Assembly: GCA_937943045.1 (NCBI GenBank)
Contig: CALEBN010000066.1
Coordinates: 11,670 to 75,669 of the forward strand
DNA: 64,000 nucleotides
Reading direction: 5' to 3'
Source of the DNA: an uncultured Collinsella sp.
Lineage (GTDB): Bacteria; Actinomycetota; Coriobacteriia; Coriobacteriales; Coriobacteriaceae
The stretch's first letter is position 1. Each line of letters opens with the position of its first letter. A program made the translations under genes and the position numbers. The notes beneath the pieces are model-generated. The model was not told the DNA's origin, did no database searches, and saw only the letters and a program-made list of their open reading frames with translations. Positions 20,287 to 63,088 of the stretch are shown piece after piece.

Positions 20287-20325
20287 AAAAACAGCGTGGC
20301 AAAGAGGCGGTCCCTTTGCCACGCT
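20287..20325 (-). terminator. intrinsic terminator after the ABC ATPase gene
   Basis: Reverse strand: AGCGTGGCAAAGGGACCGCCTCTTTGCCACGCT followed by GTTTTTGG, directly after the stop at 20334. Confidence 0.7.
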
Positions 20326-20333
20326 CGCTTGCA

Positions 20334-24458: not shown

Positions 24459-25325
24459 TTATTGAGCAATAGCGTAAAGGTCAAACCCGCCCTGCGGCGT
24501 GCTATCGACCGTGTCGGGAGCCTGTGAATTAAAACTCACCGGAACCATGCGCTTTGAGGCGCGGTAACGCGTGCCGTCGGTGGCGACGGGCGGTTCATCG
24601 ACCGTGAGCTCGTAGTCGCCGGGCTTGAGTTCGATGCCGTCACCTTCGGAATTGACGTATTGATACTCGTCGATTGCTTGTCCCTTGAGCGTGCGGCCCA
24701 CGATATGGACGAGCATTTGGCTGTCGCCGCGCGCGGTATCCCACGTCGCGCCTTCCTTAACCTCGACTGACACATGCACCGAGCGCGTGCGGCTGAGCGA
24801 TTGCTCGACGGACATCTCGACCTTGGCGGCGTCTTGGCGCTGCTGCTCAACATGGCCCCAGATGCTGCCGATTGCCGAGCAGGCGATAACGCCGGCCATG
24901 AAGGCAATGAGGATGGGGCCGAGCGGAGAGCGGCGACCCGCGTCTTCCTCATGAGCCAGGTCGGGACGATGCGTTGGCGCAGGCGCCTGAGCACCCTGCG
25001 CGGGCACGTCGAGAATGCTGAAAGATGCCGTACTGCCGGGGTCGATGGTGTGGCGCGGCTGCGGGGTCTTGGCCGGCGAGATGGACATGTCGGCTGGCTC
25101 ACCCAGCGTGGCCGTGGCATCGGCCTTTGCCTCGTCGGCCTCGGCCTGGGCCCAGGCCTGTTCAAAAGTCAGGGGCTCGGCGGCATCGGAGGCGGCGTCC
25201 GTCTCGACGGCATCGTTGCCGGTCTCGTCCTCGTCGCTCGACACGTCACGCGGCGCGGGCTCGTCCCACTCCTCGTCCGGAGCCTCGCCCTCGCTATACC
25301 ACCATTCAAAGTTATCGATATCCAT
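24459..25325 (-). CDS. hypothetical membrane-anchored protein (acidic N-terminus, one TM helix, beta-rich C-terminal domain)
   Basis: 288 aa ORF with good coding-like composition and one hydrophobic helix (LGPILIAFMAGVIACSAIGSIW). No recognisable family. Confidence 0.6.
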   Translation of the reverse strand: MDIDNFEWWYSEGEAPDEEWDEPAPRDVSSDEDETGNDAVETDAASDAAEPLTFEQAWAQAEADEAKADATATLGEPADMSISPAKTPQPRHTIDPGSTASFSILDVPAQGAQAPAPTHRPDLAHEEDAGRRSPLGPILIAFMAGVIACSAIGSIWGHVEQQRQDAAKVEMSVEQSLSRTRSVHVSVEVKEGATWDTARGDSQMLVHIVGRTLKGQAIDEYQYVNSEGDGIELKPGDYELTVDEPPVATDGTRYRASKRMVPVSFNSQAPDTVDSTPQGGFDLYAIAQ

Positions 25326-25495
25326 ACGGGGCGCCCCTTAGGCCTCGCAAATAAACACTTGCTAGCCTTATACCCGCAGACGGCGCCGGAGCTCGCCGAC
25401 ACAGACAGGAAAAGCGTCGCAACATTCGCCGCTTTTCCTCGTTTTCGAGATTTTCGCCGAATGTTGTGATGGTTTGGGCGACTGGCTGGCAGCGC

Positions 25496-25528
25496 AATGT
25501 GACAAAGGGACTGCCCCTTTGTCACATT
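25496..25528. repeat. GACAAAGGG palindromic hairpin, copy A
   Basis: AATGTGACAAAGGG-ACTGC-CCCTTTGTCACATT, 14-bp perfect arms, in the divergent intergenic region upstream of the MFS gene. Confidence 0.85.
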
Positions 25529-25576
25529 CTGTTAGAGTTGCAGGGATTGAATCCCGCTTATTCATGCGACATTGGA

Positions 25577-26821
25577 GTGACAACCTTGACCGCCGCAACC
25601 ACGCCTAAAAGCAAGTCAACCGCCGCCGTGCTCTCCCCTGCGCGCACTAAGCTCTGCTTGGCGCTGCTCGTGCTGTTGGGATTCTCGCTCGGCTGCTCCG
25701 AGTTCGTGGTCATCGGTATCGAGAGCGACCTGGCGACGGAACTCGACGTATCACTTGCTACTGCGGGCCAACTCATCAGCGTGTTCGCGCTGGTCTACGC
25801 CATCGCCACGCCGGTGCTTGCGCTCAGCACGGGGCGATTCCGCCGCTACCAGCTGCTCGTGTGCTACAGCATCGTCTTTGTGCTCGGCAACTTGGTCATG
25901 GCTCTGGCGCCCAACTTCCAGGTGCTGTTTATCTCGCGTATCATCCTGGGCTCCGTCTCGGGCGCACTGCTCGCCGTGGGCGTGACATACATCCCCGAGC
26001 TGCTGTCCCCGCAGCAAACTTCGCTTGCCATCTCGGTGGTATATGGTGCGTTTTCCGTGGCAATGGTCTTTGTGACCTCGATTGGCAAATTTGTGGCCGA
26101 CACGCTCGACTGGCACGTGGCCATGTACGGCACGCTGGCCTTTGCCGTTTTGATCTGCGGAGCGCTCGTAGCGTTTATGCCCCGCGCCGGTCAGACCGAT
26201 GAGCCCGCCACCTTCCGCGAGCAGGCGGGGCTGCTACGCGAGCCGAGCATCATCACCGGCATGCTTATCTTCTTGTTTGGCGTGGGCTCGGTCTATGTGT
26301 TCTACGGCTATGTGACGCCTTATCTTGAGCAGGTGCTGGGCATGGGCACCGTACAGGCGAGCACCACGCTCATGGCCTATGGCGTGTTCTGCCTGATTTC
26401 GAACATCCTGGGCGGATGGATCGATGCGCGTTTTGGCATGAAGGCGCTGCTGGTTACGTTTGCGCTGCAGGCGGCGGCGTTGCTCGGGCTGTTTGCTGTG
26501 GGCGGCACCATGCCGCTCGCGCTGGTCTTTGTCTTTAGCCTGGCGATGCTCATGTACCTGTTCTCGGTATCGTGCATCACGCACTTTATGGACGTGGCTC
26601 GCAGCCGCCATCCCAAATCGATGGTGCTCGCAAGTTCGGTTGAGCCCATGGCGTTTAACGTCGGCATCTCGTTTGGCACCGCAGTGGGCGGCGCCGTGGT
26701 AAGCAGCATTGGCATTGCGTACGTGGGTGCAGTGGGCGCCGCGTTCTCGCTTGTGGCCTGGGCGCTCACGCTGGTGACGATTAAGCTCGCCCGCTGGGAG
26801 CGCAAGCGGGCAAGGGCGTAG
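25577..26821 (+). CDS. MFS transporter (12-TM, drug/sugar efflux-like)
   Basis: Polytopic, with MFS-like loop motifs. Start uncertain (GTG 25577 or TTG 25586), because the longer ORF would read through the hairpin repeat. Confidence 0.8.
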   Translation: MTTLTAATTPKSKSTAAVLSPARTKLCLALLVLLGFSLGCSEFVVIGIESDLATELDVSLATAGQLISVFALVYAIATPVLALSTGRFRRYQLLVCYSIVFVLGNLVMALAPNFQVLFISRIILGSVSGALLAVGVTYIPELLSPQQTSLAISVVYGAFSVAMVFVTSIGKFVADTLDWHVAMYGTLAFAVLICGALVAFMPRAGQTDEPATFREQAGLLREPSIITGMLIFLFGVGSVYVFYGYVTPYLEQVLGMGTVQASTTLMAYGVFCLISNILGGWIDARFGMKALLVTFALQAAALLGLFAVGGTMPLALVFVFSLAMLMYLFSVSCITHFMDVARSRHPKSMVLASSVEPMAFNVGISFGTAVGGAVVSSIGIAYVGAVGAAFSLVAWALTLVTIKLARWERKRARA

Positions 26822-26828
26822 GCGTAGA

Positions 26829-26921
26829 TGCGATACTCGAGCTCGATGATGGCGATCGAACGAAAATCGCATATGCAACGTGTACTGTTTATCTGCCATG
26901 GCAACATCTGCCGCTCGACGA
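26829..26921 (+). repeat. attL-like direct repeat
   Basis: TGCGATACTCGAGCT...GCCGCTCGACGA aligns without gaps to 36121-36213, with about 9 mismatches. Confidence 0.85.
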
Positions 26922-26926
26922 GGTAA
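26873..26926 (+). pseudogene. duplicated 5' fragment of the LMW-PTP gene (MQRVLFICHGNICRSTR*)
   Basis: 17 codons matching the start of the intact gene at 36165 (MQCVLFICHGNICRSTMAES), then a stop at the island junction. Confidence 0.8.
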
Positions 26927-27096
26927 CCGCTGATTATCAGGCGTATTAACCATTCAAATCATCTGGTCTACTACCTTTTTACTACTCATTAGAGGCTCAG
27001 ACACGACAGACCAGATGGTTCCGCTTTTCACAACAGCCTACTTTTTCGACCGTTCAACAGGTCAGTAGATTAAATGGCTTATCAGCATGCTAGAGT

Positions 27097-27140
27097 TGTA
27101 CCTGCTACACAGCTCTAGCATTTTTTAATGCTCGCGCTTC
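27097..27140 (+). terminator. hairpin plus T-run inside the island's left non-coding part
   Basis: ATGCTAGAG-N17-CTCTAGCAT followed by TTTTTAATG. Coordinates approximate. Confidence 0.45.
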
Positions 27141-27552
27141 ACAACTGAAGACACTCAACCAGCGACAAGGAGGGGTATTTGCCCTTTCTCCTTGCTGGTT
27201 CGTGCTATTGCGAGGCGCTCGGAGCTGTGTAGCAACTGTGGGTGGATACTCCTCCTTTTCGTGCTACACATTCCGCTCTTCGGATGAGCCTCCTTCCGCA
27301 GTTTCCGTCACGCCAATGGAAGGAGAACGCATCGTGCACAAACACATAGCTTTCATCTCTCAAAAAGTTCAATTTGCTGCACAACAATTCCGTTATCACG
27401 ATGAATAAAACGTGACCCTCGTCCGTTAACCCCAAGCTGCGAAATCGGTGTCAGTTCACACCGATAGCATTTAATTCACAAACGTCTTGAAAAGAAATAC
27501 TTGGTGTCATAAAGACGTTGATGCACCGATCGCCAGAGAAAGGATGATTTTT

Positions 27553-27765
27553 ATGGCAAACAAAGCACCAGCACAATGCCCATCTTGCGGAGAACGCACA
27601 GGTTGGAAATGCACAGGAGAATCTAATAAAGGCTTCAGTGTGGGAAAAGCCGCCGCTGGAGGTCTGCTTTTAGGCCCCATTGGCCTCGTGGGCGGAGCAC
27701 TTGGCAAGAAGAAAAAGACGTATTACTGCCAGAACTGCGGATTCCGCGAAGACTACGATGCGTAA
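27553..27765 (+). CDS. small zinc-ribbon protein with a central glycine-zipper segment
   Basis: 70 aa: CPSC...(GKAAAGGLLLGPIGLVGGALG)...CQNC. GAAAGGA SD upstream. Confidence 0.6.
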   Translation: MANKAPAQCPSCGERTGWKCTGESNKGFSVGKAAAGGLLLGPIGLVGGALGKKKKTYYCQNCGFREDYDA

Positions 27766-27777
27766 GGGACGACACCC

Positions 27778-28296
27778 ATGACGGACGAAAACACTGGCAC
27801 CGAAAGTGAAAGCGCGAAGTTTGCGACGCACTTTAAAAAGGCATTGCTGCCTATGCTTGCTGTCTGCCTTCTTTGCGCCCTATACATCACCAGCTGTGCT
27901 TGCATATTGAATTCTTTCAATGATCCGTCAAGCTCCTCTTCTTCTGCCGCCTATGATGAAAATGATGAAGACTCTGAGGACGATGATGAAGACTCTGAGG
28001 ACGATGATGATTATTCTTCTTACTCCAGCTCCTCATCGAGCTCATCTTCTAGCACATTATTAGATGAGGACGATTGGGTTGATACGGATGACGGCAAAAC
28101 GTATCTAAAGTCTGACTCGGAAGACGGTGGCACAGACTATATCGACACCGATGGGGAGTACGCCATTCATAAAAATGCTGATGGAACTGGAGCAATTGCT
28201 GACGGCAATGGCAATAAAGCCGTGGATAACGATGGAGACGGAAAACTCGATTCCTATTCAACCGATAATGGAAAAACTTGGAACAGTCTCCAATGA
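27778..28296 (+). CDS. membrane-anchored, highly acidic Ser/Asp/Glu-rich protein with DxDxDG-type repeats
   Basis: 172 aa. TM helix LLPMLAVCLLCALYITSCACIL, poly-Ser/Asp/Glu tract, then DTDDGKTY, DTDGEYA, DNDGDGKLD (calcium-binding-like loops). Confidence 0.6.
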   Translation: MTDENTGTESESAKFATHFKKALLPMLAVCLLCALYITSCACILNSFNDPSSSSSSAAYDENDEDSEDDDEDSEDDDDYSSYSSSSSSSSSSTLLDEDDWVDTDDGKTYLKSDSEDGGTDYIDTDGEYAIHKNADGTGAIADGNGNKAVDNDGDGKLDSYSTDNGKTWNSLQ

Positions 28297-28299
28297 CAC

Positions 28300-28346
28300 G
28301 GCAATATCTATCGCTCGGCTAGATAAGCGCTGATTATCAGGCGTAT
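28300..28346 (+). repeat. internal partial att copy
   Basis: ACGGCAATATCTATCGCTCGGCTAGATAAGCGCTGATTATCAGGCGTAT is ~80% identical to 26900-26946 (the end of attL plus 25 nt beyond). 19 nt are identical: CGCTGATTATCAGGCGTAT at 26928-26946 and 28328-28346. Confidence 0.7.
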
Positions 28347-28649
28347 CAGCCAACCAAACACAGCGTTTACCAAGTGTCGGAGGAAGGAAAGCCCAATGAG
28401 CCAAAAGAACCGCCCGTTTGCTGTTACGGCAGAACTCGTCCCGTCTCTGATTTCCACTGCAATCAACGATTGCGCCCCATCAGCCTATCAGCCGCTTTAC
28501 GCAACAAGCCCGACCATCTGACGAAGCGTTCATGATCAATCTTGAAAATGGCACTGCCACGATGAGCGATGCCAGCATTCTGGCTTTTGTTTGCGGCAAA
28601 CCACAAACAGAGCCTTCAGCCACATCTTCACGTTTTCTTGGAGGAACAA

Positions 28650-29552
28650 ATGCGCAAACAAGCATTGCTCATCCCATTGTTGGCTTCATGTATCCTGCTG
28701 AGCGGCTGCGCAAGTCAGGGGACAAAACTCGACCAGCAGATTGCCTCAATCGGAAAAATTACCGCCGACTCTTGGGACGAGCTTCAGTCTCTTAATAGCC
28801 AATATAAAGAACTTGATGCTAGCGGGAAGCGGGATGTTAAACACTACAAAGACTTGGAAAGCGCCCTCGTAGAATGCTCGAAGCTCAGAACCGACCAGCA
28901 ATTTAGCAAAGATTTGAAAAAGTCGATCCATTGGCGGCAAAAACACGCGGACGATACGGATCAGGGTGTTTTAGTAGATGCTGAGCTAGCAAAGCTAGAA
29001 AAATACCGTTCCGCAGATTTCTCCAGCGACACGGTTAAGAACTCTTGCACCAAGTATTTGGAAGGACTCGACACCCAAAAAGCCGCCCTCGGCGAAGCCC
29101 TTAAATCGGACGAGCAAATTGAATGGCAAAAGGGCATGGTTCTTCGTTACGAAGCGCTCAACGAGCTTTATGAGGAGATAGGATTCCTTGCCACGGACGA
29201 TGACTTTGTCTCTAATTACATCGCAGGACTAGACAAACAGAAGAAGCTGCTAACAGCTCTCGAAGCCATTGAGGCCGATATCGACAGCCAGACCGACCGA
29301 ATCGACAACGAGGTAACATGGACTGACTATTCTGCCAGCTTCGAGGTCGACAACAACACCGACTATCAATTTGATTCGGCTTGGGAATGTTCGCTAAAAA
29401 ATGAGTCGGGCACCGTGACTGAAAATTCAACATGCCAAGTTGATAACATTAAGCCTCATTCTAGATATACGGTGACGTTCTACTTCTCCAATCCCGATAG
29501 CGGTTATGGTGGATGCGAATGGAATAACTACTACACGGATATTGTCTATTAA
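28650..29552 (+). CDS. lipoprotein of unknown function
   Basis: From the ATG after GGAGG: MRKQALLIPLLASCILLSGC (lipobox). 300 aa. Confidence 0.65.
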   Translation: MRKQALLIPLLASCILLSGCASQGTKLDQQIASIGKITADSWDELQSLNSQYKELDASGKRDVKHYKDLESALVECSKLRTDQQFSKDLKKSIHWRQKHADDTDQGVLVDAELAKLEKYRSADFSSDTVKNSCTKYLEGLDTQKAALGEALKSDEQIEWQKGMVLRYEALNELYEEIGFLATDDDFVSNYIAGLDKQKKLLTALEAIEADIDSQTDRIDNEVTWTDYSASFEVDNNTDYQFDSAWECSLKNESGTVTENSTCQVDNIKPHSRYTVTFYFSNPDSGYGGCEWNNYYTDIVY

Positions 29553-29583
29553 GGCCATCTTTCAATAACCATTAATTAATAGA

Positions 29584-30396
29584 GTGACCATGGAACCATT
29601 GAATTGCAAGCTCATCGACCTTTGCGCCGATGAAGAAAACCCTGAAGGGCGCAAATTAGCCCATGAAACCCTAGCCCGTCTCTGCGTTGCTATTGAGCGA
29701 ACCGCAGAGACCAACCAATCCAAAGGAAAAGTCGATCAGCCCAACGACAGCGCACCAAGCACGTGCATCAAAATCCGTTCTGAAGCACGTCGCATCTCAC
29801 GGCACCTCAGGGCTCGCAAGAGATCCGTCATAGCCTTCGCCGTATTGTTCGCATTACTTATCGCCAGCACGGCTATTGGAGTCCATTCATATAGCGAGCA
29901 GGTTGAGAGCTACAACGCACTTTCCGCTAAGTACGATTCTCTTTCAGATGACTATGATGATGCGTTCGACAAGGCAACTCTTTTGCAAGATAACAACAAC
30001 AAGCTGCGGAGCCGCATCGAAAAGATACAGAACGAAAAAGCAGATTTAAGTCGAGAGCTTACTCTCTATAAAGACCAGCAGGCAACTATCGACGATGAGA
30101 AAGCGAAGCTCGAAGAACTCCACTCCCAGCTTGATGCTCTTCAAAGCGAGCGCGATGAACTCCAAAAACAGGTTGATGCGAAGAAACTGGAGCAAGAGCG
30201 CGCCCAACGGGAGGCTGAACAAAACCGCATCCAAAGTGAAGCTCAGGCCACGCAGGGCCAAACCGTGTACTGGGTCTCGGGCGGCAGCGTCTACCACACC
30301 ACGCCAAACTGCCCAACGCTGAAACGCTCATCTGGAATTCACAGCGGAAGCATCTCCGCAAGCGGTAAAAGCCGCTGTTGCAAGGTCTGCGGATAA
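29584..30396 (+). CDS. single-pass membrane coiled-coil protein with a C-terminal YH..PNC...CCKVC Cys/His knuckle
   Basis: 270 aa. TM helix VIAFAVLFALLIASTAIGV, a heptad-rich Glu/Lys/Gln segment, and C-terminal VYWVSGGSVYHTTPNCPTLKRS...GKSRCCKVCG. Confidence 0.6.
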   Translation: MTMEPLNCKLIDLCADEENPEGRKLAHETLARLCVAIERTAETNQSKGKVDQPNDSAPSTCIKIRSEARRISRHLRARKRSVIAFAVLFALLIASTAIGVHSYSEQVESYNALSAKYDSLSDDYDDAFDKATLLQDNNNKLRSRIEKIQNEKADLSRELTLYKDQQATIDDEKAKLEELHSQLDALQSERDELQKQVDAKKLEQERAQREAEQNRIQSEAQATQGQTVYWVSGGSVYHTTPNCPTLKRSSGIHSGSISASGKSRCCKVCG

Positions 30397-30521
30397 CAGT
30401 GAAATAGCTGCATAATGATAATTAAACTTGGAGGAGGGTGCATGATGCCCTTCCTCCAAGTCATTCTCCATGGCCTCTACGGCACATTCTATTGCCTTTC
30501 AGTTTTAGACCAGACCAAGAG

Positions 30522-31511
30522 CTATGCAGCCTTGGAACGTTTCCTATAGTCTTGCCAGTTGGGCAACAAAACATATTTCCTAAGGAGATAGCGAACCTGT
30601 TCCATATTCCAACCCTTTGTTGGCACTTGTTTTTCGAAGAGTTTGACCAGTGATGCCACTGTTTTCAGGTTGAAGCTATATCTAGCAGAATCAACCTCTT
30701 CAAGAGAATAATAAAACGGCGGCCTCTCCGCTCCTTCTTTAAGTCCGAACGAGGTGCACGATTCAATCCTATTTATTGAACCATAGTCCGACAATAACCA
30801 GGGACTTTTCTCAGCAAGGGAACTCTCCCACGTTGCCTTAAATCGCCCAAGTACGTACTCAGACATATCAGACCACTCGCCGTGTTTTATTACATCAGCA
30901 AGAGATTTATATCCATGTTTGCGAACATACTCGATGCGATACGAATCAAAAGACTCTCGATACTCTTCGTCATAGTAAAGAGGATGGTCTCCCCAATATA
31001 CGATCACCTCCTTTTTTACTTCAACCCAATCTATCTTTGCAGCGCGGTCGACAATAAGACTCCTTCTTTTGCCGCTCAGCTTGGATGTCAGCTCTTGAAA
31101 TAGGTCATCGTCTATCTTCTTGTCTTTTTTTGCATAATAAAGACGATCCCCATATAGTCCAAAATATTTAGAAAGCTCGCCATTGGTCAGTCTTGCCGTC
31201 TGCCACTGTCCATTTGCTGTATGGTACATATTTCGCGTATATTCTCGAACGAACAGTGACCCAAATAGGATGGAAAACTCTTCCTCGGTTTCCGACTTCC
31301 TCCCGTTCGTCTTTCTCCCGTCGACTCTCGCCAGCGGCTCCTCGTAGACCTCGTTTACAACAAACAATCGATTGGTCGGCCTCTCATAACGGCAATACAG
31401 TTCCCAATGCTTCAGTTGCAGTTGCTTCGACTTGCCCGTTTTTGGTTTCTCGTGAAATAGCTCACACATTTCCTTGTAGCTGTACTCTCCAACTTTTAGC
31501 CCTAAATCCAA
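30522..31511 (-). CDS. hypothetical protein (329 aa), no recognisable family
   Basis: Long AT-rich ORF on the same strand as, and downstream of, the serine recombinase gene. Lys/Glu/Tyr-rich, no TM helix. Confidence 0.55.
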   Translation of the reverse strand: MDLGLKVGEYSYKEMCELFHEKPKTGKSKQLQLKHWELYCRYERPTNRLFVVNEVYEEPLARVDGRKTNGRKSETEEEFSILFGSLFVREYTRNMYHTANGQWQTARLTNGELSKYFGLYGDRLYYAKKDKKIDDDLFQELTSKLSGKRRSLIVDRAAKIDWVEVKKEVIVYWGDHPLYYDEEYRESFDSYRIEYVRKHGYKSLADVIKHGEWSDMSEYVLGRFKATWESSLAEKSPWLLSDYGSINRIESCTSFGLKEGAERPPFYYSLEEVDSARYSFNLKTVASLVKLFEKQVPTKGWNMEQVRYLLRKYVLLPNWQDYRKRSKAA

Positions 31512-31926
31512 ATAAACCTCCTATCAATCCAACTGAACTACCTTCCTGCACGAATTTAATTTGTCACTATAAATTTTTATTAACTTATAGATGCTCGATT
31601 TCATCTCGCATAATTTGTCACCAATCAACTACCATATATAATTAAATTATTTAGGGACTTGAAAGGTGACAAATATAAACATTTGCTACGTCTCGAAGAG
31701 ATGTAGCAAACTATAAGTAATGCGAGATTGATATTGTTAAACATGCAGGTAGATACGTTAGTAAGTAGCGGATATAAACTTACCTCCCTTAATTAAAATT
31801 ACCAACTCCGCTATTTAGGTACAGTGAAAGTATCCCCTAGCATGTAACGGCTATACGCCAAACCATCAATATCAATTCCCTATTTCGCGATATAGTTTTG
31901 AGCTATCGAGTTTATATGTTTGATTT

Positions 31927-32502
31927 TTATTTACCACGACATACATTTTTGTTGCCAGCTTCTCTATATAGAGTGCTCCTGCTGATACCAGTCTTTTCAC
32001 ATATCTCTTTAACCGACTTCGTTCTGTCGTTTCCAAATAGATAGAGAGCCATGTTGAGAGCGTCTTCATCAACATTAGGTCTGCCGAACTTCACACCTTG
32101 CTTCATAGCGGCCTCCCTGCCCTCGGCAGCATTCTCAAGGATGATCTGCCTCTGGAACTCAGCAATCGCTGACAGCATATGAAATATCAACTTGCCTGCT
32201 GGAGTGGTTGTATCGATAGCCTCTTTCTTGCTATGAACCTCGACATGCATCTGTTCGAAGGTCTCCATAAGGTCAATTAGGTCTTTAGTACTCCTGCCAA
32301 GTCGAGACAACTCAGTGATATAGACTTCATCGCCCTCGCGCAGACGAGAGAGCATATCTTTCAGAGCAGGACGATTGGCGTTCTTGCCCGAAGCCTTATC
32401 GATAAATATCTGGTTATCCTTTAAGCCAAGCTCATGCGCATATTCAAGCTGCCTTGCCTCGTTCTGTTCCTTTGTTGAGCAGCGAGCGTAGAGAAACTTC
32501 AT
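31927..32502 (-). CDS. serine recombinase (resolvase/invertase size class)
   Basis: 191 aa. YARCSTKEQ catalytic Ser motif, RLGRS, GRP, and a C-terminal HTH (TGISRSTLYRE). Confidence 0.9.
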   Translation of the reverse strand: MKFLYARCSTKEQNEARQLEYAHELGLKDNQIFIDKASGKNANRPALKDMLSRLREGDEVYITELSRLGRSTKDLIDLMETFEQMHVEVHSKKEAIDTTTPAGKLIFHMLSAIAEFQRQIILENAAEGREAAMKQGVKFGRPNVDEDALNMALYLFGNDRTKSVKEICEKTGISRSTLYREAGNKNVCRGK

Positions 32503-32518
32503 CGCGTGCCTCCAATTC

Positions 32519-32572
32519 CTATATGTCTCAAAAGTCCTATTAGTATTTTATATTGAGACATATACTTTTGGA
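32519..32572. promoter_or_regulatory. candidate res/recombinase binding site upstream of the serine recombinase gene
   Basis: ATATGTCTCAA-N21-TTGAGACATAT inverted repeat, with a third CATGTCTCAAA half-site near 32628. TGTC-type half sites are known for resolvases. Confidence 0.35.
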
Positions 32573-33247
32573 ATATCTTTTAGGACACTATTTGATTCAA
32601 AAGACTCACTTGGGGAGTGGTATTTCTCATGTCTCAAATGTTATGAATTTTGGGATACACCGTAACGCAGCTCAACTCTCTTACGCACTCCCAGCTTGCA
32701 AAAGATGCGTTACCTCATAAGCCCCTACCCCAGTCTGTTTTGTCGCATACGGGGTGTTTTACACTTTGGCCTCAACTTCTACTTGGCAGACCCCATCTAT
32801 GTAGTTGATATCAACATGACAGGAAGAATAAATTCCTCCGACCGTCTACCTTCACTGTAAATAGCGTATTACCAAGGCATAATCGCCAATGCTATCGAGA
32901 AGACCGCTAGCTGCCTAAAACGCCTTGAATCTTCGCGCCCTGAGAAATGCCAGCAGGAAGCGGCACCGTTCGCCCTTTTAGTCAAAATGAAAGCCCGTGT
33001 CCTTGATACAATCTCATCTACCACACCGCAACATCCATATATTTGGATGGAGCTTCACAATGGCATAGCTGCCGCTTTGTGTATGCAAACAGGCGAATTG
33101 GAGGGCACCCGCCTTTCAAGGTCTGTTCGCATATGCATGTGAAGCCTTGCGGTGTGGTAACTGTGGTAGGTGTCCTCCACATCGCTTCATTTAGTTGATG
33201 TGCTTCTCCCCTTCCACTTTGTCGGAATTTCTTTGGAAGGAGAGGTC

Positions 33248-34384
33248 ATGCCCCTTATCAACTGCCCAGAATGCGGGAAGCAAGTTTCAGACAAAGCTCC
33301 GACCTGCCCAAATTGTGGCTTTCCGCTGAACAGCATCTCCAGCAACGAAGCAACCAGCAGTACAGAAGATACTCAAAGCGACCAGCCAGAATCTGTGACC
33401 GAGAAGCAAAAAGATGGTTCCTCGAATGAAGCGCAGGACAATAATAAGCTCCCCGATACGCAAACGAAAAAGCCAGCGCAAGAGGGGCAAAAGAAAAAGA
33501 AGCAAGTCGTTTCAGGCAAAATGAAATTGACAGCAGCAGTACTCGGCATAGTCGCAGTCGCAGAAATTGCCGTTGGGGCTATGCTTGCATCGAACATCAT
33601 CTGCATACACGAGTGGAGCGGAAACAACTGTTGCCAAGTCAATCACTGCTATAAATGCGGAAAAGTCGATCCGAATGGAAAGATTGACCCCGATGCACAC
33701 AGCTGGAACTCTGCAACGTGCACCGAACCGAAAACTTGTGTCAACTGTAGGAAAACCGTCGGAGAGAAAAACCCAGACAATCATTGCTTCGAGGACAGAA
33801 GCGATGGCTCAAAAGTCTGTACGCGCTGTGGAAAGATAATTCCAGCCCCGAATAGCACCGACGAAGCGGGAGACGATAGCCCTTCAACCACAACTAGTCA
33901 GTCATCTGAAGACAACAACCAAACCGCGACAGAGGAGACCGCCCCTTCCGCATTTTCCTTTTCCCCTAGCTCCTTCAATAGAAAGCTCAAAAGCAATCTA
34001 GACGCAGACGTTATCGACAAGAGCACCGATGAGCTTATTTCCTATGTGTTTGTTGATGACATAAAGAACCCCGATATGTACGCAATGCTCTCTTTTACGA
34101 CAATGGACGGGCAGAGCAATCTGACAAAGAGCAGCAGGTATGACAGCTCCTGCAACCCGTCCCCCCTCCTCATGATTGACACCACGAAATGCGACTCAGC
34201 GATTGTTGCACGTGGATTCATAATGGCCTGCGATTCCTCACTCTCAAAAACCGATGCTCAGGAAGTCGTTACAAATCTTGCAAACAGCGTCGAAGGCAAT
34301 AGTGGGTCTACAAGCAAGAACGGGATTAACTATATTTTGGCAGGCGATGGCGAGAAAGTCATGCTTAGGGCAACAGTCGCATAG
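33248..34384 (+). CDS. zinc-ribbon / TM / Cys-rich extracellular protein of unknown function
   Basis: MPLINCPECGKQVSDKAPTCPNCG, a Ser/Thr/Glu linker, a TM helix (LTAAVLGIVAVAEIAVGAMLA), then about 14 Cys in CxxC-like pairs and an unknown C-terminal domain. SD GGAAGGAGAGG. Confidence 0.65.
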   Translation: MPLINCPECGKQVSDKAPTCPNCGFPLNSISSNEATSSTEDTQSDQPESVTEKQKDGSSNEAQDNNKLPDTQTKKPAQEGQKKKKQVVSGKMKLTAAVLGIVAVAEIAVGAMLASNIICIHEWSGNNCCQVNHCYKCGKVDPNGKIDPDAHSWNSATCTEPKTCVNCRKTVGEKNPDNHCFEDRSDGSKVCTRCGKIIPAPNSTDEAGDDSPSTTTSQSSEDNNQTATEETAPSAFSFSPSSFNRKLKSNLDADVIDKSTDELISYVFVDDIKNPDMYAMLSFTTMDGQSNLTKSSRYDSSCNPSPLLMIDTTKCDSAIVARGFIMACDSSLSKTDAQEVVTNLANSVEGNSGSTSKNGINYILAGDGEKVMLRATVA

Positions 34385-34685
34385 GCTCCTCAATCCACAC
34401 AATGCAATGTCTGGCACCGTAGCGTACTTCGCTACGGTGCCCTTTCTTTCAAACTGCGATTTCAATTGATGTACGCTCAGCCTATAGCAAAATTGCACGC
34501 TGGGAGCGAAATTAAGGCTTGGAATTGCACTGATGGGCATTTACTCCAATCCCATCCCCAACGGGGCAAATAGGCCTCATTTCCTTTGATTTAACCCAAT
34601 AAACGAACCCTTTTACCATGGCATAGACAACCCCATAGCTACAATCATGTTGTCGTGCTTGAGTCTCTGAAAGGAGATCCAAGCT

Positions 34686-35882
34686 ATGTCGAATAGGAAA
34701 GATAACAAGGGTCGAGTTCTCCATCGCGGAGAAGGCCAGCGCCCAGACGGTCGCTACTCATTCAAATACACCAATTGGATGGGAAAGACCTGCTTTGTCT
34801 ATTCGTGGACTTTGACAATTCACGACCAAACGCCGCACGGCAAAAAGAGAGACCTCTGCTTAAGACAAAAAGAGCAGCAGGTTCAAAAAGACCTCTTCGA
34901 CCACATTGCACCTGAGAACATGAACGTCATGACTCTGGTTGAGAACTACCTTGCGACCAAGGTTGCGGTACGAAAGACAACCGTTAGCGCCTATAAAACC
35001 GTCACCAATTACCTGAAAACAGACAGCTTCAGCAAAGCCAAAATATCAAACATTACGGTGTTGGACGCAAAGAAATGGCTTATCCACCTTCAGCAAGATG
35101 TTGGAAAGGGCTATAGCAGCGTCTGTAGCATCCGAGGCATACTCAGGCCAGCCTTTCAACTTGCTGAGGAATGTGGCCTCATCAGAAGAAACCCCTTTAA
35201 CTTCGAGCTTATCAATGTGCTTGTCAACGATACGGTATCCAGAGAATCGTTAAGCGTTAGACAGGAACGGCTATTCCTTGAATTTATGCGCTCGGATCAT
35301 CACTTCTCGCGCTACTTTGAGACTTACTTCATCTTGTTGAACACTGGACTCAGAATTTCTGAATACTGCGGCCTGACCCTTGATGACATTGACTTCGAAA
35401 ATCACTGCATACGCGTTCAAAAGCAACTCCATCGTGCGAGAGATATGCAGTATTACGTTGAAGAACCAAAGACGAAATCTGGTATGAGGTATATCCCCAT
35501 GACCGCTTCTGTCGAAAAGGCCTTCCACAGTCTCATCGGACAGAGGGCGCAACCAAAAGAAGAGCCTGTTATTGATGGGGTAAGGGGCTTCATCTGCCTA
35601 GACAAGAATGAGATGCCATGCGTTGCTCTGCATTGGGAACATAGGCTCAAACGCGCCATCATTAAGCACAACCGCATCTATAAGGAAGAGCTGCCTCATA
35701 TAACTCCGCACCAGCTCAGGCACACTTTCTGCAGCCGAATGGCACGCGCTGGCATGAGTCCGGCAAAGCTCAGATACATTATGGGGCACTCAGATATCAA
35801 CACCACCTACAACGTTTACACCCATCTTGGGCTTGAAGATATTCAAGACGAGATGCTTGCTATTGAACAAAACCGCAGGTAG
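34686..35882 (+). CDS. int: tyrosine-type site-specific integrase
   Basis: 398 aa. SAM-like N-terminal domain, then C-terminal RISE..., HQLRHTF, GHSDINTTYNVYTH (R-H-R-Y catalytic pattern). Confidence 0.92.
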   Translation: MSNRKDNKGRVLHRGEGQRPDGRYSFKYTNWMGKTCFVYSWTLTIHDQTPHGKKRDLCLRQKEQQVQKDLFDHIAPENMNVMTLVENYLATKVAVRKTTVSAYKTVTNYLKTDSFSKAKISNITVLDAKKWLIHLQQDVGKGYSSVCSIRGILRPAFQLAEECGLIRRNPFNFELINVLVNDTVSRESLSVRQERLFLEFMRSDHHFSRYFETYFILLNTGLRISEYCGLTLDDIDFENHCIRVQKQLHRARDMQYYVEEPKTKSGMRYIPMTASVEKAFHSLIGQRAQPKEEPVIDGVRGFICLDKNEMPCVALHWEHRLKRAIIKHNRIYKEELPHITPHQLRHTFCSRMARAGMSPAKLRYIMGHSDINTTYNVYTHLGLEDIQDEMLAIEQNRR

Positions 35883-36120
35883 ACATTGGTAGTAAAAATT
35901 TGAGCCGTACTACGTTTTTACTACTTTTGCTTCTACTTTTGACTGATTTCTGGCCTTAATAAAGTGGATTCTCCACCCTATATTGGAAACTGATTTTTAG
36001 AGCCATTCAGCTCGTTGAATGCAGTAGAAGTGTTGGGGATAAAGGTCTTATCTTGTTATTATCGCAGGTAGAAATAACTATTTGACCCTGTCCCTTTGCC
36101 ACATCACATCGGGGCGCGGC

Positions 36121-36213
36121 TGCGATACTCGAGCTTGATGATGGCGATCGAAAGGAAACCGCATATGCAATGCGTACTGTTTATCTGCCATGGGAACATC
36201 TGCCGCTCGACGA
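36121..36213 (+). repeat. attR-like direct repeat (overlaps the promoter and 5' end of the LMW-PTP gene)
   Basis: Partner of 26829-26921. Confidence 0.85.
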
Positions 36214-36611
36214 TGGCCGAGTCGGTGTTTACCGAGCTGGTGCACCGCGCCGGACGCGCGGGCGAGTTTGTCATTGATTCCGCTGCGACCTCGACCGAGG
36301 AGATCGGCAACCCGCCACACCACGGTACCGTTGCCAAGCTACGCGAGGTCGGGATTCCCGTCGTCGCACATCGCGCGCGTCAGGTGCGTCGTGCAGAGTA
36401 TGGCAACTGGGATCACATTGTCTATATGGACGATGAAAACGCCCGCGGCCTGCACCGTATCTTTGGCAAGGACCCCGATGGCAAGATCTCGCGCCTGCTC
36501 GATTGGACCGATCGCCCCGGCGACGTGGCCGACCCCTGGTACACCGGCAATTTCGATGCCACCTACCGCGATGTGCTCGCCGGTTGCACCGCTATGCTCG
36601 AGCAGCTGTAG
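36165..36611 (+). CDS. low-molecular-weight protein-tyrosine phosphatase
   Basis: MQCVLFICHGNICRSTMAE (CX5R(S/T) P-loop) and DPWY motif. 148 aa. Confidence 0.9.
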   Translation: MQCVLFICHGNICRSTMAESVFTELVHRAGRAGEFVIDSAATSTEEIGNPPHHGTVAKLREVGIPVVAHRARQVRRAEYGNWDHIVYMDDENARGLHRIFGKDPDGKISRLLDWTDRPGDVADPWYTGNFDATYRDVLAGCTAMLEQL

Positions 36612-36781: not shown

Positions 36782-37111
36782 TTACTCGTCGACGATCTCG
36801 GCAAGCCAGACGTTCAACGTATCGACCTCGGGGCAGCAGAACTTTGCCGTACCGGGCTCGTTGCCAGGCACGGTTCCGCCGTAGCGCAGGATATCGATAT
36901 AGGGAAAGCCCACGTGGCAGGCCATGGCGCACATCTTGCCGCGGTCTCGGTCGAAGTCAAAGACGTCGCCCGGCTTATGACCATGGTGGCAGCGACACAC
37001 ACCCAGCTGATCCACGCAGCTCACGCGGATACGCGGACGCTTGCCCCGCGACGCGCCGAGCGGCTTGTCCCCGCCCGCGGGCTTGGCACCGCCCTCGCCA
37101 GCGTTACTCAT
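36782..37111 (-). CDS. small Cys-rich protein, TIGR04076-like
   Basis: 109 aa with a C..C.C....PGD.F....CAMACH..FPYI..LRYGG....CCP pattern. Overlaps the pdxK stop by 8 nt. The family assignment is from memory of the motif. Confidence 0.55.
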   Translation of the reverse strand: MSNAGEGGAKPAGGDKPLGASRGKRPRIRVSCVDQLGVCRCHHGHKPGDVFDFDRDRGKMCAMACHVGFPYIDILRYGGTVPGNEPGTAKFCCPEVDTLNVWLAEIVDE

Positions 37112-37928
37112 GGTCGATCACATCCAGGCAGGCCTCGATGGGAAGGCCGGCCGACTTGTCCTCTTGGTCGGCATTGCGCTCGATAAGCTCGGCCACCACA
37201 CGCATAGCGTCGGTCGTCGCACGTTGCAGGCTCCAGCCGGCCATAACGCGACCCACGAGCACCGACGAGAACGTATCGCCCGTGCCCGGGAAATACACCG
37301 GGATCAGCTCAAAGGGAATCGTAAAGTACTCTCCCGCCACATGGTCGTAGCCGATAACGGCACTCGCCCCGTCGACCTTTGCGCTCGTGATGACCACCGA
37401 CTTGGCGCCCAGCGCGAGCATGGCATCCACGAGCGCACGAGCCTCGTCGGCCGTAATCTGCTCGGCCATAGGCGTATCGGTGAGCAGACACGCCTCGGTA
37501 TAGTTGGGCACCGCGTAGTCGGCGCACTCGACCAGGCTGCGCATAAGGCCGATGGTCGACTCGGGCACGCCAGCGTAGAGCCTGCCGTTGTCGGCCATGA
37601 TGGGGTCGACGAACACTTTGGTGCCCTTTTGCGCGCGGCGGTGGCAAAAGTCCGAGATGATGCGCGCCTCTTCTTCGGTCACGATAAAGCCGGTCGAGAT
37701 GGCGTCGAATTCAAAGCCGAGTTCCTCCCAGATGGCGAGGCTCTGGCGGACATACTCCGTGGTGTCGTGGATGTAGAACTTGGGGTAGTTGAGCGTATCG
37801 GAAACGAGGGCCGTCGGCAGGTTGTGGATGCGATAGCCCATGTGCGACAGCACCGGCAGCATGGCAGAAAGCGCGACCTTGCCGTAGCCGCACATATCGT
37901 TGATCAGCAGCAGCTGAGTGTTCTTCAT
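37104..37928 (-). CDS. pdxK: pyridoxal/pyridoxine/pyridoxamine kinase (PfkB/ribokinase superfamily)
   Basis: From the ATG at 37928: MKNTQLLLINDMCGYGKVALSAMLPVLSHMG...VFVDPIMADNG...GTGDTFSS. Confidence 0.8.
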   Translation of the reverse strand: MKNTQLLLINDMCGYGKVALSAMLPVLSHMGYRIHNLPTALVSDTLNYPKFYIHDTTEYVRQSLAIWEELGFEFDAISTGFIVTEEEARIISDFCHRRAQKGTKVFVDPIMADNGRLYAGVPESTIGLMRSLVECADYAVPNYTEACLLTDTPMAEQITADEARALVDAMLALGAKSVVITSAKVDGASAVIGYDHVAGEYFTIPFELIPVYFPGTGDTFSSVLVGRVMAGWSLQRATTDAMRVVAELIERNADQEDKSAGLPIEACLDVIDHE

Positions 37929-38109
37929 GAGTGTCCCCCTTGGGTCGGGTGCGACGCGACGGCGCCACAGTGCGACTAAGTGTAGCGCAGGGGGCGTTGC
38001 AAGCGGGCGCAGGCGCCGAGGAGGGCACATTGTTGCGGAAAGGTTACGGAAATGGGAGGCAAAATCGCGGCGGTAGCGGCACGGTAGCTGCCATCTATTT
38101 ACTACCATT

Positions 38110-38265
38110 CCAAAACTATGCCGGATTACTACGATAAACCGCCAGTCTCCAACCACAACGAATTGCACTCCAGCAAAACCGCAGGTAGACAGCTTGTGAT
38201 TTTCCGAAAAACAATGCCGAGGTCTGAGATTTCGAATTCATCGTAGTAATCCGGCATAGTTTTGG
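38110..38265. repeat. family-2 element: 26-bp perfect inverted repeats closing a core with AAAACCGCAGGTAGAC
   Basis: CCAAAACTATGCCGGATTACTACGAT (38110-38135) is the exact reverse complement of 38240-38265. Core at 38175-38190. Confidence 0.85.
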
Positions 38266-38299
38266 GCAAAGCAACTTTGGAAGGGTGTCACCGCAGCCC

Positions 38300-38624: not shown

Positions 38625-39128
38625 ATGTGTGTTGAACCACTCGCCTATCCGCATGAACCCGGCGGCGACCCCTCACGGCCGGCAGACGAGCCCGAGACCC
38701 AATCCAAGGAGGACCGTCTCGCCAAGAGAATCCTCCATGGGCTGGGGTTTTGCGGCCATTACATGCATTTTCACGGCGGCGGCATATCTGGCAAAGCGCC
38801 CATCGTCTGCCTGCTCGCTAAGCAGCCCACCGGCGAGCTTTCCCAACAGGAACTCGGCATGCACTTCGACCTCAAGCCGGGGTCACTTTCCGAGATTCTG
38901 TCCAAGCTCGAAATGGGCGGTCTTATCGAGCGCAACCGCAATCCCAAAGACCGTCGGCAGCTCACCATCCGCCTGACCGAAGCGGGATGGGAAAAGGCCC
39001 GCGTTGAGCAGGCAGCCCGCATTCGCTTTAGAGAGCAGGCCTTTAGCGCGCTCACCCACGACGAGCGCGAGGACCTCGCCGAAATGCTCGAGAAAATCCG
39101 TGTAACCTGGGAGGAACTGGATGATTAA
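38625..39128 (+). CDS. MarR family transcriptional regulator
   Basis: 167 aa with a winged-helix core (LSQQELGMHFDLKPGSLSEILSKLEMGGLIERNRNPKDRRQLTIRLTEAG). Overlaps the downstream ABC gene start. Confidence 0.85.
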   Translation: MCVEPLAYPHEPGGDPSRPADEPETQSKEDRLAKRILHGLGFCGHYMHFHGGGISGKAPIVCLLAKQPTGELSQQELGMHFDLKPGSLSEILSKLEMGGLIERNRNPKDRRQLTIRLTEAGWEKARVEQAARIRFREQAFSALTHDEREDLAEMLEKIRVTWEELDD

Positions 39129-46298: not shown

Positions 46299-46329
46299 AT
46301 GCGACAAAGGAACAGCCCCTTTGTCGCAT
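46299..46329. repeat. GACAAAGGG palindromic hairpin, copy B
   Basis: ATGCGACAAAGG-AACAGCC-CCTTTGTCGCAT, 9 nt after the MFS stop. Confidence 0.85.
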
Positions 46330-46359
46330 TCCACCGGTCACCAGTATTAAGGAGTCGAA

Positions 46360-47510: not shown

Positions 47511-47581
47511 TACCTTGCCGACGATTTTTCTGGGGCGGGGGCTATTTTGTACCTCGGCTTGATTCGTTTGCCACGAAATGC

Positions 47582-47717
47582 GCCTATCTACTACGTTTAA
47601 CCGATTACCCTCAACCATACCGAATTTCGCGAAATAAAAACCGCAGGTAGACGGCTTGCCGATTTTCGGAAAACCCAGGCATGGTCGACCTATACGGTTC
47701 AAACGTAGTAGATGGGC
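47582..47717. repeat. family-2 element: 22/23-bp inverted repeats closing a core with AAAACCGCAGGTAGAC
   Basis: GCCTATCTACTACGTTTAACCG (47582-47603) pairs with 47695-47717 (1 mismatch, 1 indel). Core at 47637-47652. Interior is homologous to 38136-38239. Confidence 0.85.
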
Positions 47718-47811
47718 CGTTTTCATGGCGCAGCCCCAAAACAGTCTTTTAGGACGGGTGGTATCCTTGGTAGCTCTGTGCTGCAAACGCACCTCAAACG
47801 CAAGGAGTCCC

Positions 47812-50960: not shown

Positions 50961-51060
50961 GCTAAACACTTTACCTACGTTTATCAAGGCGTGAGCTGCG
51001 GGTTTTTATCTTCTCGGCGAACGGTATAAACACCTCAGTGTTTGGATTGATAAATCGATT
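50961..51060. repeat. family-2 element, diverged copy in the opposite orientation
   Basis: The reverse complement reads ATACCGTTCGCCGAGAAGATAAAAACCCGCAGCTCACGCCTTGATAAACGTAGGTAAAG. Compare 47619-47712: ATACCGAATTTCGCGAAATAAAAACCGCAGGTAGACGGCTTG...AAACGTAGTAGATGG. Confidence 0.55.
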
Positions 51061-59533: not shown

Positions 59534-59568
59534 GAATGTGACAAAGGGATTGTCCCTTTGTCACATTC
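59534..59568. repeat. GACAAAGGG palindromic hairpin, copy C
   Basis: GAATGTGACAAAGGGA-TTG-TCCCTTTGTCACATTC, 16-bp perfect arms, abutting the nitroreductase stop codon. Confidence 0.85.
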
Positions 59569-62958: not shown

Positions 62959-63088
62959 CGTCTGTCCAGGCGGAGGCATATAAGGTTCCCTGCTCGGACA
63001 GTCCTGCGCAAGACGAAGGCCACATTAAGTGGCCTTCTTTGCGTGCGGAACTCGCGATGAACCTTATATGCCTCCGCCTGGACAGACG
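62959..63088. repeat. 30-bp perfect inverted repeats flanking a 70-bp segment that contains a terminator hairpin
   Basis: CGTCTGTCCAGGCGGAGGCATATAAGGTTC (62959-62988) is the exact reverse complement of 63059-63088. Confidence 0.85.

Follow-up and report, generated by a model that had tools for sequence, protein, structure and literature searches.

A family of long intergenic palindromes in Collinsella whose apex motif recurs in phage and island DNA

The DNA analyzed here is a 64,000-nt stretch of contig CALEBN010000066.1 from an uncultured Collinsella sp. (hereafter the window), which carries two long intergenic palindromes, e1 and e2. Element e1 (38107-38268, + strand), a palindrome of ~160 bp recognized by profile, fold, and alignment evidence, lies between two divergent genes, a pfkB-type kinase gene (37104-37928, -) and a MarR gene (38625-39128, +) that is accompanied by ABC exporters. 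Its outer stem is formed by the left arm CCAAAACTATGCCGGATTACTACGATAAA (38110-38138, +), whose 29 nt are 97% complementary to the right arm at 38237-38265 (+), which includes GTAGTAAT. The apex holds the motif AAAACCGCAGGTAGAC (38175-38190, +), here called M, which occupies the invariant columns 76-91 of the family alignment described below, and a GTAGTAAA motif stands directly outside the left arm (38098-38105, -). Element e2 (47570-47729, +), a palindrome of 160 bp with profile and fold evidence, is situated between the terminator of a GFO/IDH/MocA oxidoreductase gene and the tex gene (start 47812). Its outer stem consists of GCCACGAAA (from 47570) and TTTTCATGGC (to 47729), its left and right arms each contain a GTAGTAGA motif (A motif; 47587-47594, -, and 47705-47712, +), and its apex motif M, again AAAACCGCAGGTAGAC (47637-47652, +), makes an imperfect 11-7-12 dyad with positions 47653-47668. 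Each of the two elements folds as one long hairpin (-64 to -79 kcal/mol, z -7 to -10). The + and - strands have energies of -64.4 and -78.7 kcal/mol, respectively, in e1 (z ~ -10) and of -64.6 and -78.4 kcal/mol in e2.

The original prediction, made from the window alone, had proposed that the interiors of the two elements are homologous. They share 71% identity over 86 ungapped nt (the e2 part being 47589-47674), and a two-sequence profile retrieved e1 and e2 at E-values of 5e-45 and 1e-40; both elements are real. It had also stated that the terminal repeats are different sequences; this is correct, yet they align column by column, and e2 is longer than claimed, extending from 47570 to 47729. 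A diverged inverted copy that had been placed at 50961-51060 gave no profile match even at E ≤ 1000 and has an unremarkable folding energy. The core 10-mer, said to occur five times, is present four times in its exact form CCGCAGGTAG (2647, 35873, 38179, and 47641), and the claim that the core is far more frequent than chance was upheld by CGCAGGTAGA, which occurs four times in the window versus 0.09 expected, namely in e1, in e2, and at two sites in the right arm of an integrative island. Two shorter core matches had been pointed out as well: the one at 36063 is CGCAGGTAGA in the island right arm (+), and the one at 2647 stands alone as a bare 10-mer, the significance of which is uncertain.

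A core-motif search of other genomes, which the original prediction had called for, revealed the extent of the family. Scanning one genome per species with the pattern AAAACCGCAGGTAGACNGC returned at least 120 stretches, nearly all of them from Collinsella; only a few of the matches listed bear a label other than Collinsella or Coriobacteriaceae. A match in a Bacillota genome bin (L056) was discarded as a chance match and not a family copy. Contigs from a Bacteroidaceae bin (L028) and an Alloprevotella bin (L062) contain typical copies that differ little from those of cluster 0, and were probably assigned to the wrong bins. The 118 usable copies among the matches listed form 18 clusters at 85% identity, which on sequence grounds indicates at least a dozen distinct loci or subfamilies. 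Element e1 belongs to cluster 6 and has orthologous copies in 6 other Collinsella genomes, and e2 belongs to cluster 0 together with 25 relatives. An alignment of 48 representatives (A1) has 190 columns, only 3 of them gap columns, and an invariant core. By profile search of the fetched loci (~0.9 Mb), 149 full-length copies in at least 12 locus clusters were obtained, ~31 of which lack the scan pattern, yet carry AAAACCGCAGGTAG or a close variant. None of the plasmid and phage records other than Collinsella DNA matches the element.

Each copy is a palindrome of ~165 bp with stems that are subfamily-specific but complementary. At least three sequence types of the outer stem exist, one with CAAAACTATGCCGGATTACTACGAT, one that starts in the same way and continues with TTACGGGGCTGG, and one with CGCCACGAAAnGGGCCTATCTACTACGTTT; further, different stems are found in L002. 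The outer stems hold TAC/GTA-containing motifs, mostly GTAGTA(A/G)A, with one subfamily lacking GTAGTA, and the middle of the stem contains a paired GACCA/TGGTC block. Common to all copies is the asymmetric apex motif M, AAAACCGCAGGTAG(AC), of 16 bp, which is the better-kept half of an 11-7-11 dyad. The apex consensus is AAAACCGCAGG-TAGACRG-CYTGCSGWTTT, with a fixed left arm and loop and a degenerate right arm; in some copies, for example in cluster 3, the apex is a perfect A4-stem-T4 structure, AAAACCGCAGG-N7-CCTGCGGTTTT. The tetranucleotide GTAG is present within the stems and at the apex, never as an unpaired tag. Tandem arrays of two or three copies with variable composition were observed, and in a 40-kb stretch of a C. 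aerofaciens record three copies occur: two in tandem, flanked by argS and rho, and one more at a distance of 10 kb. This 0.9-Mb record contains only ~3 places detectable by BLAST, and the copy number is low, perhaps ten to twenty per genome as estimated from partial genomes. In L111, a block of ~300 nt comprising the palindrome and its flanks is present in two direct copies ~885 nt apart on either side of a short segment, in reverse orientation of the locus; the block has either been duplicated locally, or the copies enclose a small insertion.

The closing stems had been predicted to differ between copies while remaining complementary around a common core, and this was confirmed across copies and subfamilies. 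With the full hairpin structure drawn on the alignment, standard pairs fill 83% of the cells, as opposed to 33-43% when the partners are slid by 1-3 columns as a control. Both sides have changed in 30 of the 56 stem pairs, and the covariation score is 0.31 versus 0.06-0.09 with slid partners; for the outer stem, RNAalifold agrees with the covariation. Pairs 79-101 and 81-99 are mostly unpaired, and the 3' arm of the apex is degenerate in most copies. In the e2-type subfamily, one stem pair (columns 24/154) is polymorphic, and its four combinations all occur, at the rates that independence of the two columns would give.

Orthologous copies are 0.93-0.99 identical, which equals or exceeds the identity of the flanking coding DNA and is far above that of other intergenic DNA, a comparison biased by the core that the scan required. 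Two orthologue sets were by-catch, found by the profile only and without a required core, and here the element is 0.76-0.96 identical, compared with 0-0.6 for neighbouring intergenic DNA. The neighbouring genes are unrelated housekeeping genes; apart from the kinase, MarR, exporter, oxidoreductase, and Tex genes of the window, they encode a Mur ligase, an M24 peptidase, a two-component regulator, hydrogenase subunits, ArgS, Rho, and tRNAs. The sequence data thus portray the family as a maintained low-copy palindrome, neither a proliferating MITE (a miniature transposable element with inverted repeats) nor a cis-regulator of one pathway.

Outside the palindromes, M recurs as a bare motif in mobile DNA, and one such place is the window itself. 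An integrative island of ~9.2 kb (26922-36112, +), which is context and not a family copy, carries two M motifs and A motifs. It has a GC content of 47% versus ~61% elsewhere, is bounded by 101-bp direct repeats of 90% identity (26821-26921 and 36113-36213), and sits at the 5' end of a low-molecular-weight (LMW) phosphotyrosine phosphatase gene (36165-36611). Besides a resolvase-family gene, it encodes a Tn916-type tyrosine integrase (34686-35882, +) with Integrase_DNA (PF02920, 7.5e-28) and Phage_integrase (PF00589, 4e-29) domains, whose N-terminal domain matches the Tn916-type arm-binding domain of PDB 1BB8/1B69 (E 2e-18). The same LMW-phosphatase gene adjoins this integrase in 19 public contigs (19/19 with the same insertion site). 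An 18-nt exact match, CAAAACCGCAGGTAGACA (35868-35885), which the original prediction had overlooked, covers the end codons and stop of the integrase gene; within it, motif M1 (35869-35884, +) is the same 16-mer without a palindrome, overlying the codons for ..QNRR and the stop. Motif M2, CGCAGGTAGA (36063-36072, +), lies ~40 nt inside the right junction, and its context GTAGA-N7-ATTTGA, as read directly from the sequence, mirrors the left end of the island. The right arm additionally contains two GTAGTAAA motifs, at 35889 (+) and 35917 (-) (span 35889-35924), and the left arm two GTAGTARA motifs (26967-26985, -). In the whole window GTAGTARA is found 8 times versus 0.74 expected: 4 sites are in the two island arms, 2 in the arms of e2, 1 touches the left arm of e1 from outside, and the eighth, inside a gene, is taken as chance.

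Nine IMG/VR contigs contain a 19-mer form of the motif, and the metagenome scan added one more mobile-element context. One viral contig, L139, contains a normal full copy between two tRNA genes. In the other eight (56-67% GC), the motif has no palindrome and is always intergenic. It is located 7 nt after the integrase stop, facing a CHAP lysin gene (L133), between an integrase gene and an endolysin-like gene (L135), between the large terminase and an integrase of another type, 350-550 nt upstream of the latter (L132, L134, and L138), 83 nt upstream of terS, the small terminase gene, where two direct copies stand (L136), or, accompanied at a short distance by a second, degenerate copy, within a head-gene module (L137). 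In the element from the metagenome scan (L164, L165), which carries an integrase and a DnaB-type helicase, it lies over the stop of a 195-aa open reading frame. The carriers span at least three integrase types, and the otherwise unrelated L135, L138, and L164 have a common block of 45-53 nt that starts at M. Relatives of the L132 integrase have the motif only at identities of at least 86%, and those below this value, from lower-GC contigs, are devoid of it. L135 (identical to L169) and its 80% relative L170 share the arrangement integrase, M-like motif (+), tRNA-3'-like fragment, M (-). The fragment, GGTTCGAATCC...ACCA, follows directly downstream of the integrase gene (3380-3480 in L169, 3363-3470 in L170); its likeness to a tRNA was judged by eye, and Rfam gives it no score. 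This fragment, which has inverted copies of M on its two sides, probably represents the attP core.

Lastly, two chromosomal copies (L088, 3130-3303, and L041, 1-146) are broken inside M at contig ends, one reading ...AAAACCG followed by foreign DNA, the other foreign DNA followed by GCAGGTAGAC..., both at the same position of the apex motif and with part of M lost. From these sequences, some element appears to insert site-specifically into the apex at this point.

The presence of M in palindromes as well as in recombination and packaging regions, in either orientation relative to the local genes and sometimes as two spaced copies, supports the view that the bare motif of mobile elements behaves like a protein-binding site. 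We therefore propose that the family acts as DNA and is neither an RNA gene nor a classical transposon, and we tentatively favor, by analogy, a DNA-level palindrome whose apex, and probably also stems, may be recognized by a recombination-accessory or architectural protein common to the host and its mobile elements. Protein binding at M, the identity of the protein, and any effect on the host are what we infer here. M would be the recognition site of this protein, and mobile elements of the same host clade would use it, without the palindrome, in the arms of their recombination and packaging regions. The binder might be an accessory DNA-binding or DNA-bending factor, either an IHF-like host factor or the arm-binding domain of an integrase. 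For such a factor, the chromosomal palindromes could provide high-affinity platforms, and they might also serve as occasional insertion hot spots. The closest analogy, from which the idea of an architectural protein derives, are IHF sites, which occur in the lambda attP arms and cosB as well as in the centres of the BIME-1/RIP and Correia palindromes (PMC3333891, PMC2649163).

Several points weigh against this explanation. M does not fit the E. coli IHF consensus, and an HU/IHF-type gene is absent from the 1.3 Mb of sampled sequence, an amount for which this absence is uninformative. In the by-catch orthologue sets, the apex is no better conserved than the stems; since these sets did not require the core, the apparent invariance of the apex is partly due to the search pattern. 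A single role of M is assumed, although its mobile-element contexts differ (integrase gene, upstream of terS, head module). A protein site alone also does not explain why 55-60 bp of stem per side are complementary; such kept complementarity suggests that the DNA forms a hairpin or cruciform, or that it is copied by a mechanism which generates palindromes. Furthermore, the DNA in the complex of the Tn916 integrase N-domain (1B69) is presumably GAGTAGTAAATTC, which would make GTAGTAAAT a Tn916 arm-type site; a literature search for the Tn916 arm-site sequence returned nothing relevant. A variant deserves mention, though we regard it as improbable, in which the host keeps the palindromes as orphan modules of att type, each with a symmetric 11-7-11 recombinase core at the apex and, ~55 bp away on each side, inverted arm-type sites for heterobivalent integrases of the Tn916 type. 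If this were true, they would represent an undescribed class of tyrosine-recombinase-associated miniature elements that is conserved genus-wide, and could be either non-autonomous integrative mini-elements or pads, for landing or as decoys, by which the integrases and accessory factors of mobile elements are titrated or guided.

Among the alternatives to a protein-recognized palindrome kept by the host, the one that survives best is a selfish non-autonomous palindrome, mobilized in trans by a Tn916-type tyrosine recombinase or, like REPINs, by an HUH/Y1 enzyme. Its stems would comprise enzyme motifs and the hairpin, its apex would be the recombination core, and most copies would be old and fixed. 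This possibility overlaps with the explanation favored above, but we consider it rather unlikely. It agrees with a dispersed multi-copy family that has subfamilies, with tandem arrays of varying composition, and with clusters 5 and 7, two subfamilies that occupy the same locus in different genomes. Moreover, copies of ~90% identity exist in unrelated flanks, with homology ending sharply at CGCCACG...CGTGGCG, exactly the ends of the palindrome, which shows that dispersal took place in the past. Against this stand the low copy number (~3 BLAST-detectable places in a 0.9-Mb C. aerofaciens record, 2 copies in the 64-kb window) and the orthologous positions in many species with a conservation far above that of neighbouring intergenic DNA. 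Joining the flanks of copies revealed no clean empty site, and the lone candidate (L037 versus L114/L031) proved to be a replaced intergenic region. No longer element with the family ends was detected in ~1 Mb of Collinsella DNA, where the end motifs are nearly all inside copies, with one orphan. No integrase was found beside other copies by tblastn in ~0.9 Mb of loci, and no transposase gene occurs among the annotated neighbouring genes. Target-site duplications, which the original prediction had named as a sign of MITE behaviour, are missing: the flanks of copies in unrelated loci contain no direct repeats. This would be expected for mobility by a tyrosine recombinase or a Y1 enzyme. GTAGTARA is shared by the stems and the arms of the Tn916-type island, and the 11-7-11 apex resembles a recombinase core site, but GTAGTA is missing from the stems of one subfamily, and in each of the 19 contigs the site used by the island integrase is the LMW-phosphatase gene. 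Subfamilies have different ends around a common centre, which is the opposite of the expectation for MITEs. Thus the lack of target-site duplications, the conserved centre with variable ends, the low copy number, and the orthologous positions speak against a MITE, in line with the original prediction. REP (repetitive extragenic palindromic), BIME (bacterial interspersed mosaic element), and REPIN repeats are defined by GC-rich stem-loop units of 20-40 bp that carry a GTAG or CGTC tag and occur in high copy number, in contrast to these low-copy palindromes of ~165 bp.

The original prediction had offered a structured RNA or a protein-recognized cruciform; protein-recognized DNA is favored here, and the RNA half found no support in Rfam, strand comparison, or orientation. 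An RNA gene of this kind would produce a hairpin transcript of ~160 nt whose apical loop is conserved and which might serve as a small RNA, be cut by RNase III, or soak up a protein as a sponge. The very stable folding (z -7 to -10), the conservation above surrounding intergenic DNA, and the stem pairs changed on both sides would all suit such a transcript, but stem covariation by itself cannot separate RNA from DNA palindromes. In the window, the strand opposite AAAACCGCAGGTAGAC folds better by 14 kcal/mol for each copy. Over 132 unique copies, however, this preference vanishes, with strand means of -74.9 and -74.2 kcal/mol, 67 copies favoring one strand and 64 the other, and equal G-U counts, and the advantage seen in the window is therefore not a property of the family. 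Rfam 15 yielded no match in the window at the gathering score and none for e1 or e2 at E ≤ 10, so the scan proposed for the two elements identified no RNA family; on both elements and two phage att regions, searched at the gathering score and at E ≤ 10, it reported terminator-like noise only. No promoter or terminator is conserved with the element, paralogues share nothing beyond the palindrome, and the apex is terminator-like on one strand only, in some copies. Orientation relative to the flanking genes is arbitrary: the 105 contexts classified with a simple gene finder, orthologues being counted separately, comprise 54 between tandem genes (31 antisense and 23 sense), 39 between convergent genes, and 12 between divergent ones, so that convergent neighbours are common. 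Moreover, in phage and island DNA the apex motif occurs in either orientation without the hairpin. We therefore regard an RNA gene as quite unlikely and, given also the absent target-site duplications and the orthologous positions, the family as neither a classical MITE nor a supported RNA gene. Two other readings of the core were rejected. A small peptide is contradicted by the sole recurrent ATG (ATGGTC), which reads outward into subfamily-specific stems, and by stops in the apex frames, as seen by inspection; for a sigma-70 promoter, the spacing and the -10 hexamer do not fit, and a scan scored nothing in e2 and no more than a weak 9/12 match in e1.

Could the apex be the attB of temperate phages or integrative elements, with M as the identity segment for integrase crossover? 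An identity of 16-22 nt between the chromosomal apex and phage intergenic DNA beside integrase genes resembles an att core, and the 45-53-nt block shared from M onward by three unrelated elements, the two chromosomal copies broken inside M, and the 11-7-11 layout of the apex, as in a recombinase core site, would be compatible with this role. Yet hybrid junctions, in which half a palindrome joins foreign DNA with M kept, were seen at none of the ~115 M-bearing chromosomal loci among the matches listed, and both broken copies miss part of M and so are not products of a crossover in an identity segment. In L169/L170, the likely attP core is the tRNA-3'-like fragment, with M in the arms on both sides, and the island, although M overlaps its integrase stop, uses a different target, the LMW-phosphatase gene. 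Because hybrid junctions are lacking, M is damaged in the broken copies, and the island and L169/L170 apparently recombine elsewhere, a crossover role is less likely; with M also adjoining terminase and head genes, we consider it doubtful, even more so than an RNA gene. Oversized bidirectional intrinsic terminators or mRNA-stabilizing 3' hairpins are hardly credible, for although convergent contexts are enriched (39/105), the A4-stem-T4 apex of some copies (cluster 3) would fit both strands, and the e2 apex scored terminator-like, albeit on the - strand only, e1 lies between divergent genes and has a misfitting apex, e2 has a separate canonical terminator upstream of it, most copies have a degenerate 3' arm at the apex, the invariant loop and 55-bp outer stems are not needed for termination, arrays of three would be useless for it, and many copies are not at 3' ends.

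By analogy, the family is best filed with intergenic palindromic repeats of the BIME-1/RIP, Correia, and ERIC (enterobacterial repetitive intergenic consensus) kind. In E. coli, BIME-1/RIP (RIB) consist of an inverted pair of REPs around a central IHF-binding L motif (PMC3333891, PMC2817692). They resemble the Collinsella palindromes in having intergenic palindromic arms and a conserved asymmetric centre, in the latter case a predicted protein site, in the recurrence of the central site in phage regions (att/cos), in their occurrence as singles or tandem clusters, and in their enrichment at gene 3' ends. REPs are also known targets of insertion sequences (PMC1525189), a parallel to the two copies broken in the apex. 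The differences are that the arms measure 55-60 bp here versus 20-40 bp for REPs, that copies number in the tens versus hundreds, that the centre is not an IHF consensus, and that no transposase (RAYT) is among the annotated neighbours. A survey of GTAG-tagged REPs lists no Actinobacteria (PMC3733652). Correia repeat enclosed elements (CREE) of Neisseria are likewise intergenic, 100-155 bp long, composed of an inverted repeat and a conserved core with the potential to form long hairpins, and divided into subfamilies, and they carry a central IHF site (PMC2649163). They differ in their conserved 26-bp terminal repeats, TA target duplications, hundreds of copies, and presence/absence polymorphism (PMC2649163), whereas the present family has variable ends, no duplication, a low copy number, and orthologous positions across species.

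The ERIC sequences of enterobacteria, or intergenic repeat units (IRU), come close in palindromy, conserved centre, and orthologous positions, but they belong to an unrelated lineage and are unrelated in sequence. They are imperfect extragenic palindromes of ~127 bp with a highly conserved centre, a low to moderate copy number, often at orthologous positions, and of unknown function. ERICs are not known to have a core in common with recombination regions of phages or islands. The att arms of heterobivalent integrases, such as lambda attP and the Tn916 ends, are similar in combining repeats, here GTAGTARA, with a second motif, here M; M also flanks the presumed crossover in inverted orientation in two phages, and the 11-7-11 apex is like a core site. 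Unlike att arms, the chromosomal family copies form long, perfect palindromes that no integrase gene adjoins and at which no sign of recombination was found, and one subfamily is without GTAGTA. Integron attC sites (57-141 bp), which are recognized as folded DNA by a tyrosine recombinase and form cassette arrays beside intI, are imperfect palindromes in which structure is kept while sequence varies, as in the family; however, they have conserved R- and L-box ends and a variable centre, whereas here the centre is conserved, and an integron context is absent. dif/Xer, parS, DnaA boxes, DNA-uptake sequences, and Chi were ruled out by sequence, copy number, or length. TACTACG may resemble the nick site of pMV158-family RepB, and the apex hairpin may likewise be similar to HUH nick hairpins.

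No description of the family was found in Rfam 15 or in the searchable literature on Collinsella repeats. It is unusual in its conserved centre with free ends, its genus-wide orthologous conservation, and a motif common to phage and island recombination regions. Collinsella is an abundant genus of the human gut whose non-coding genome is essentially undescribed, and a fixed centre with free but complementary ends is a conservation pattern opposite to that of MITEs. We know of no characterized IHF-type system in the Coriobacteriia; the link through M offers a testable handle on a putative DNA-binding factor common to host and mobile elements in this class. On the practical side, the family accounts for some assembly breaks and could serve as a marker for Collinsella contigs.

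The window contains further repeats. A separate family of 33-nt palindromes, ATGTGACAAAGGGnnnGnCCCTTTGTCACAT, has four copies (20294-20326, 25497-25529, 46299-46331, and 59536-59568), which are probably terminator-like hairpins; members are also found directly beside long palindromes in L006, L041, and L114. Another long palindrome, at 62959-63088, has perfect 30-bp arms 70 nt apart, GAAGGCCAC...GTGGCCTTC, around a small terminator-like hairpin, and its sequence is unrelated to the e1/e2 family. A very large gene at 10500-15100 (-) consists of many diverged tandem repeats of ~350-1100 nt, includes a 300-nt exact duplicate (12961-13260 and 14395-14694), and probably encodes a repeat-domain surface protein. 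Finally, the cumulative GC skew climbs to ~25 kb and then drops (~25000-27000), which could reflect either a switch in replication direction or the combined effect of gene strand and the island boundary.

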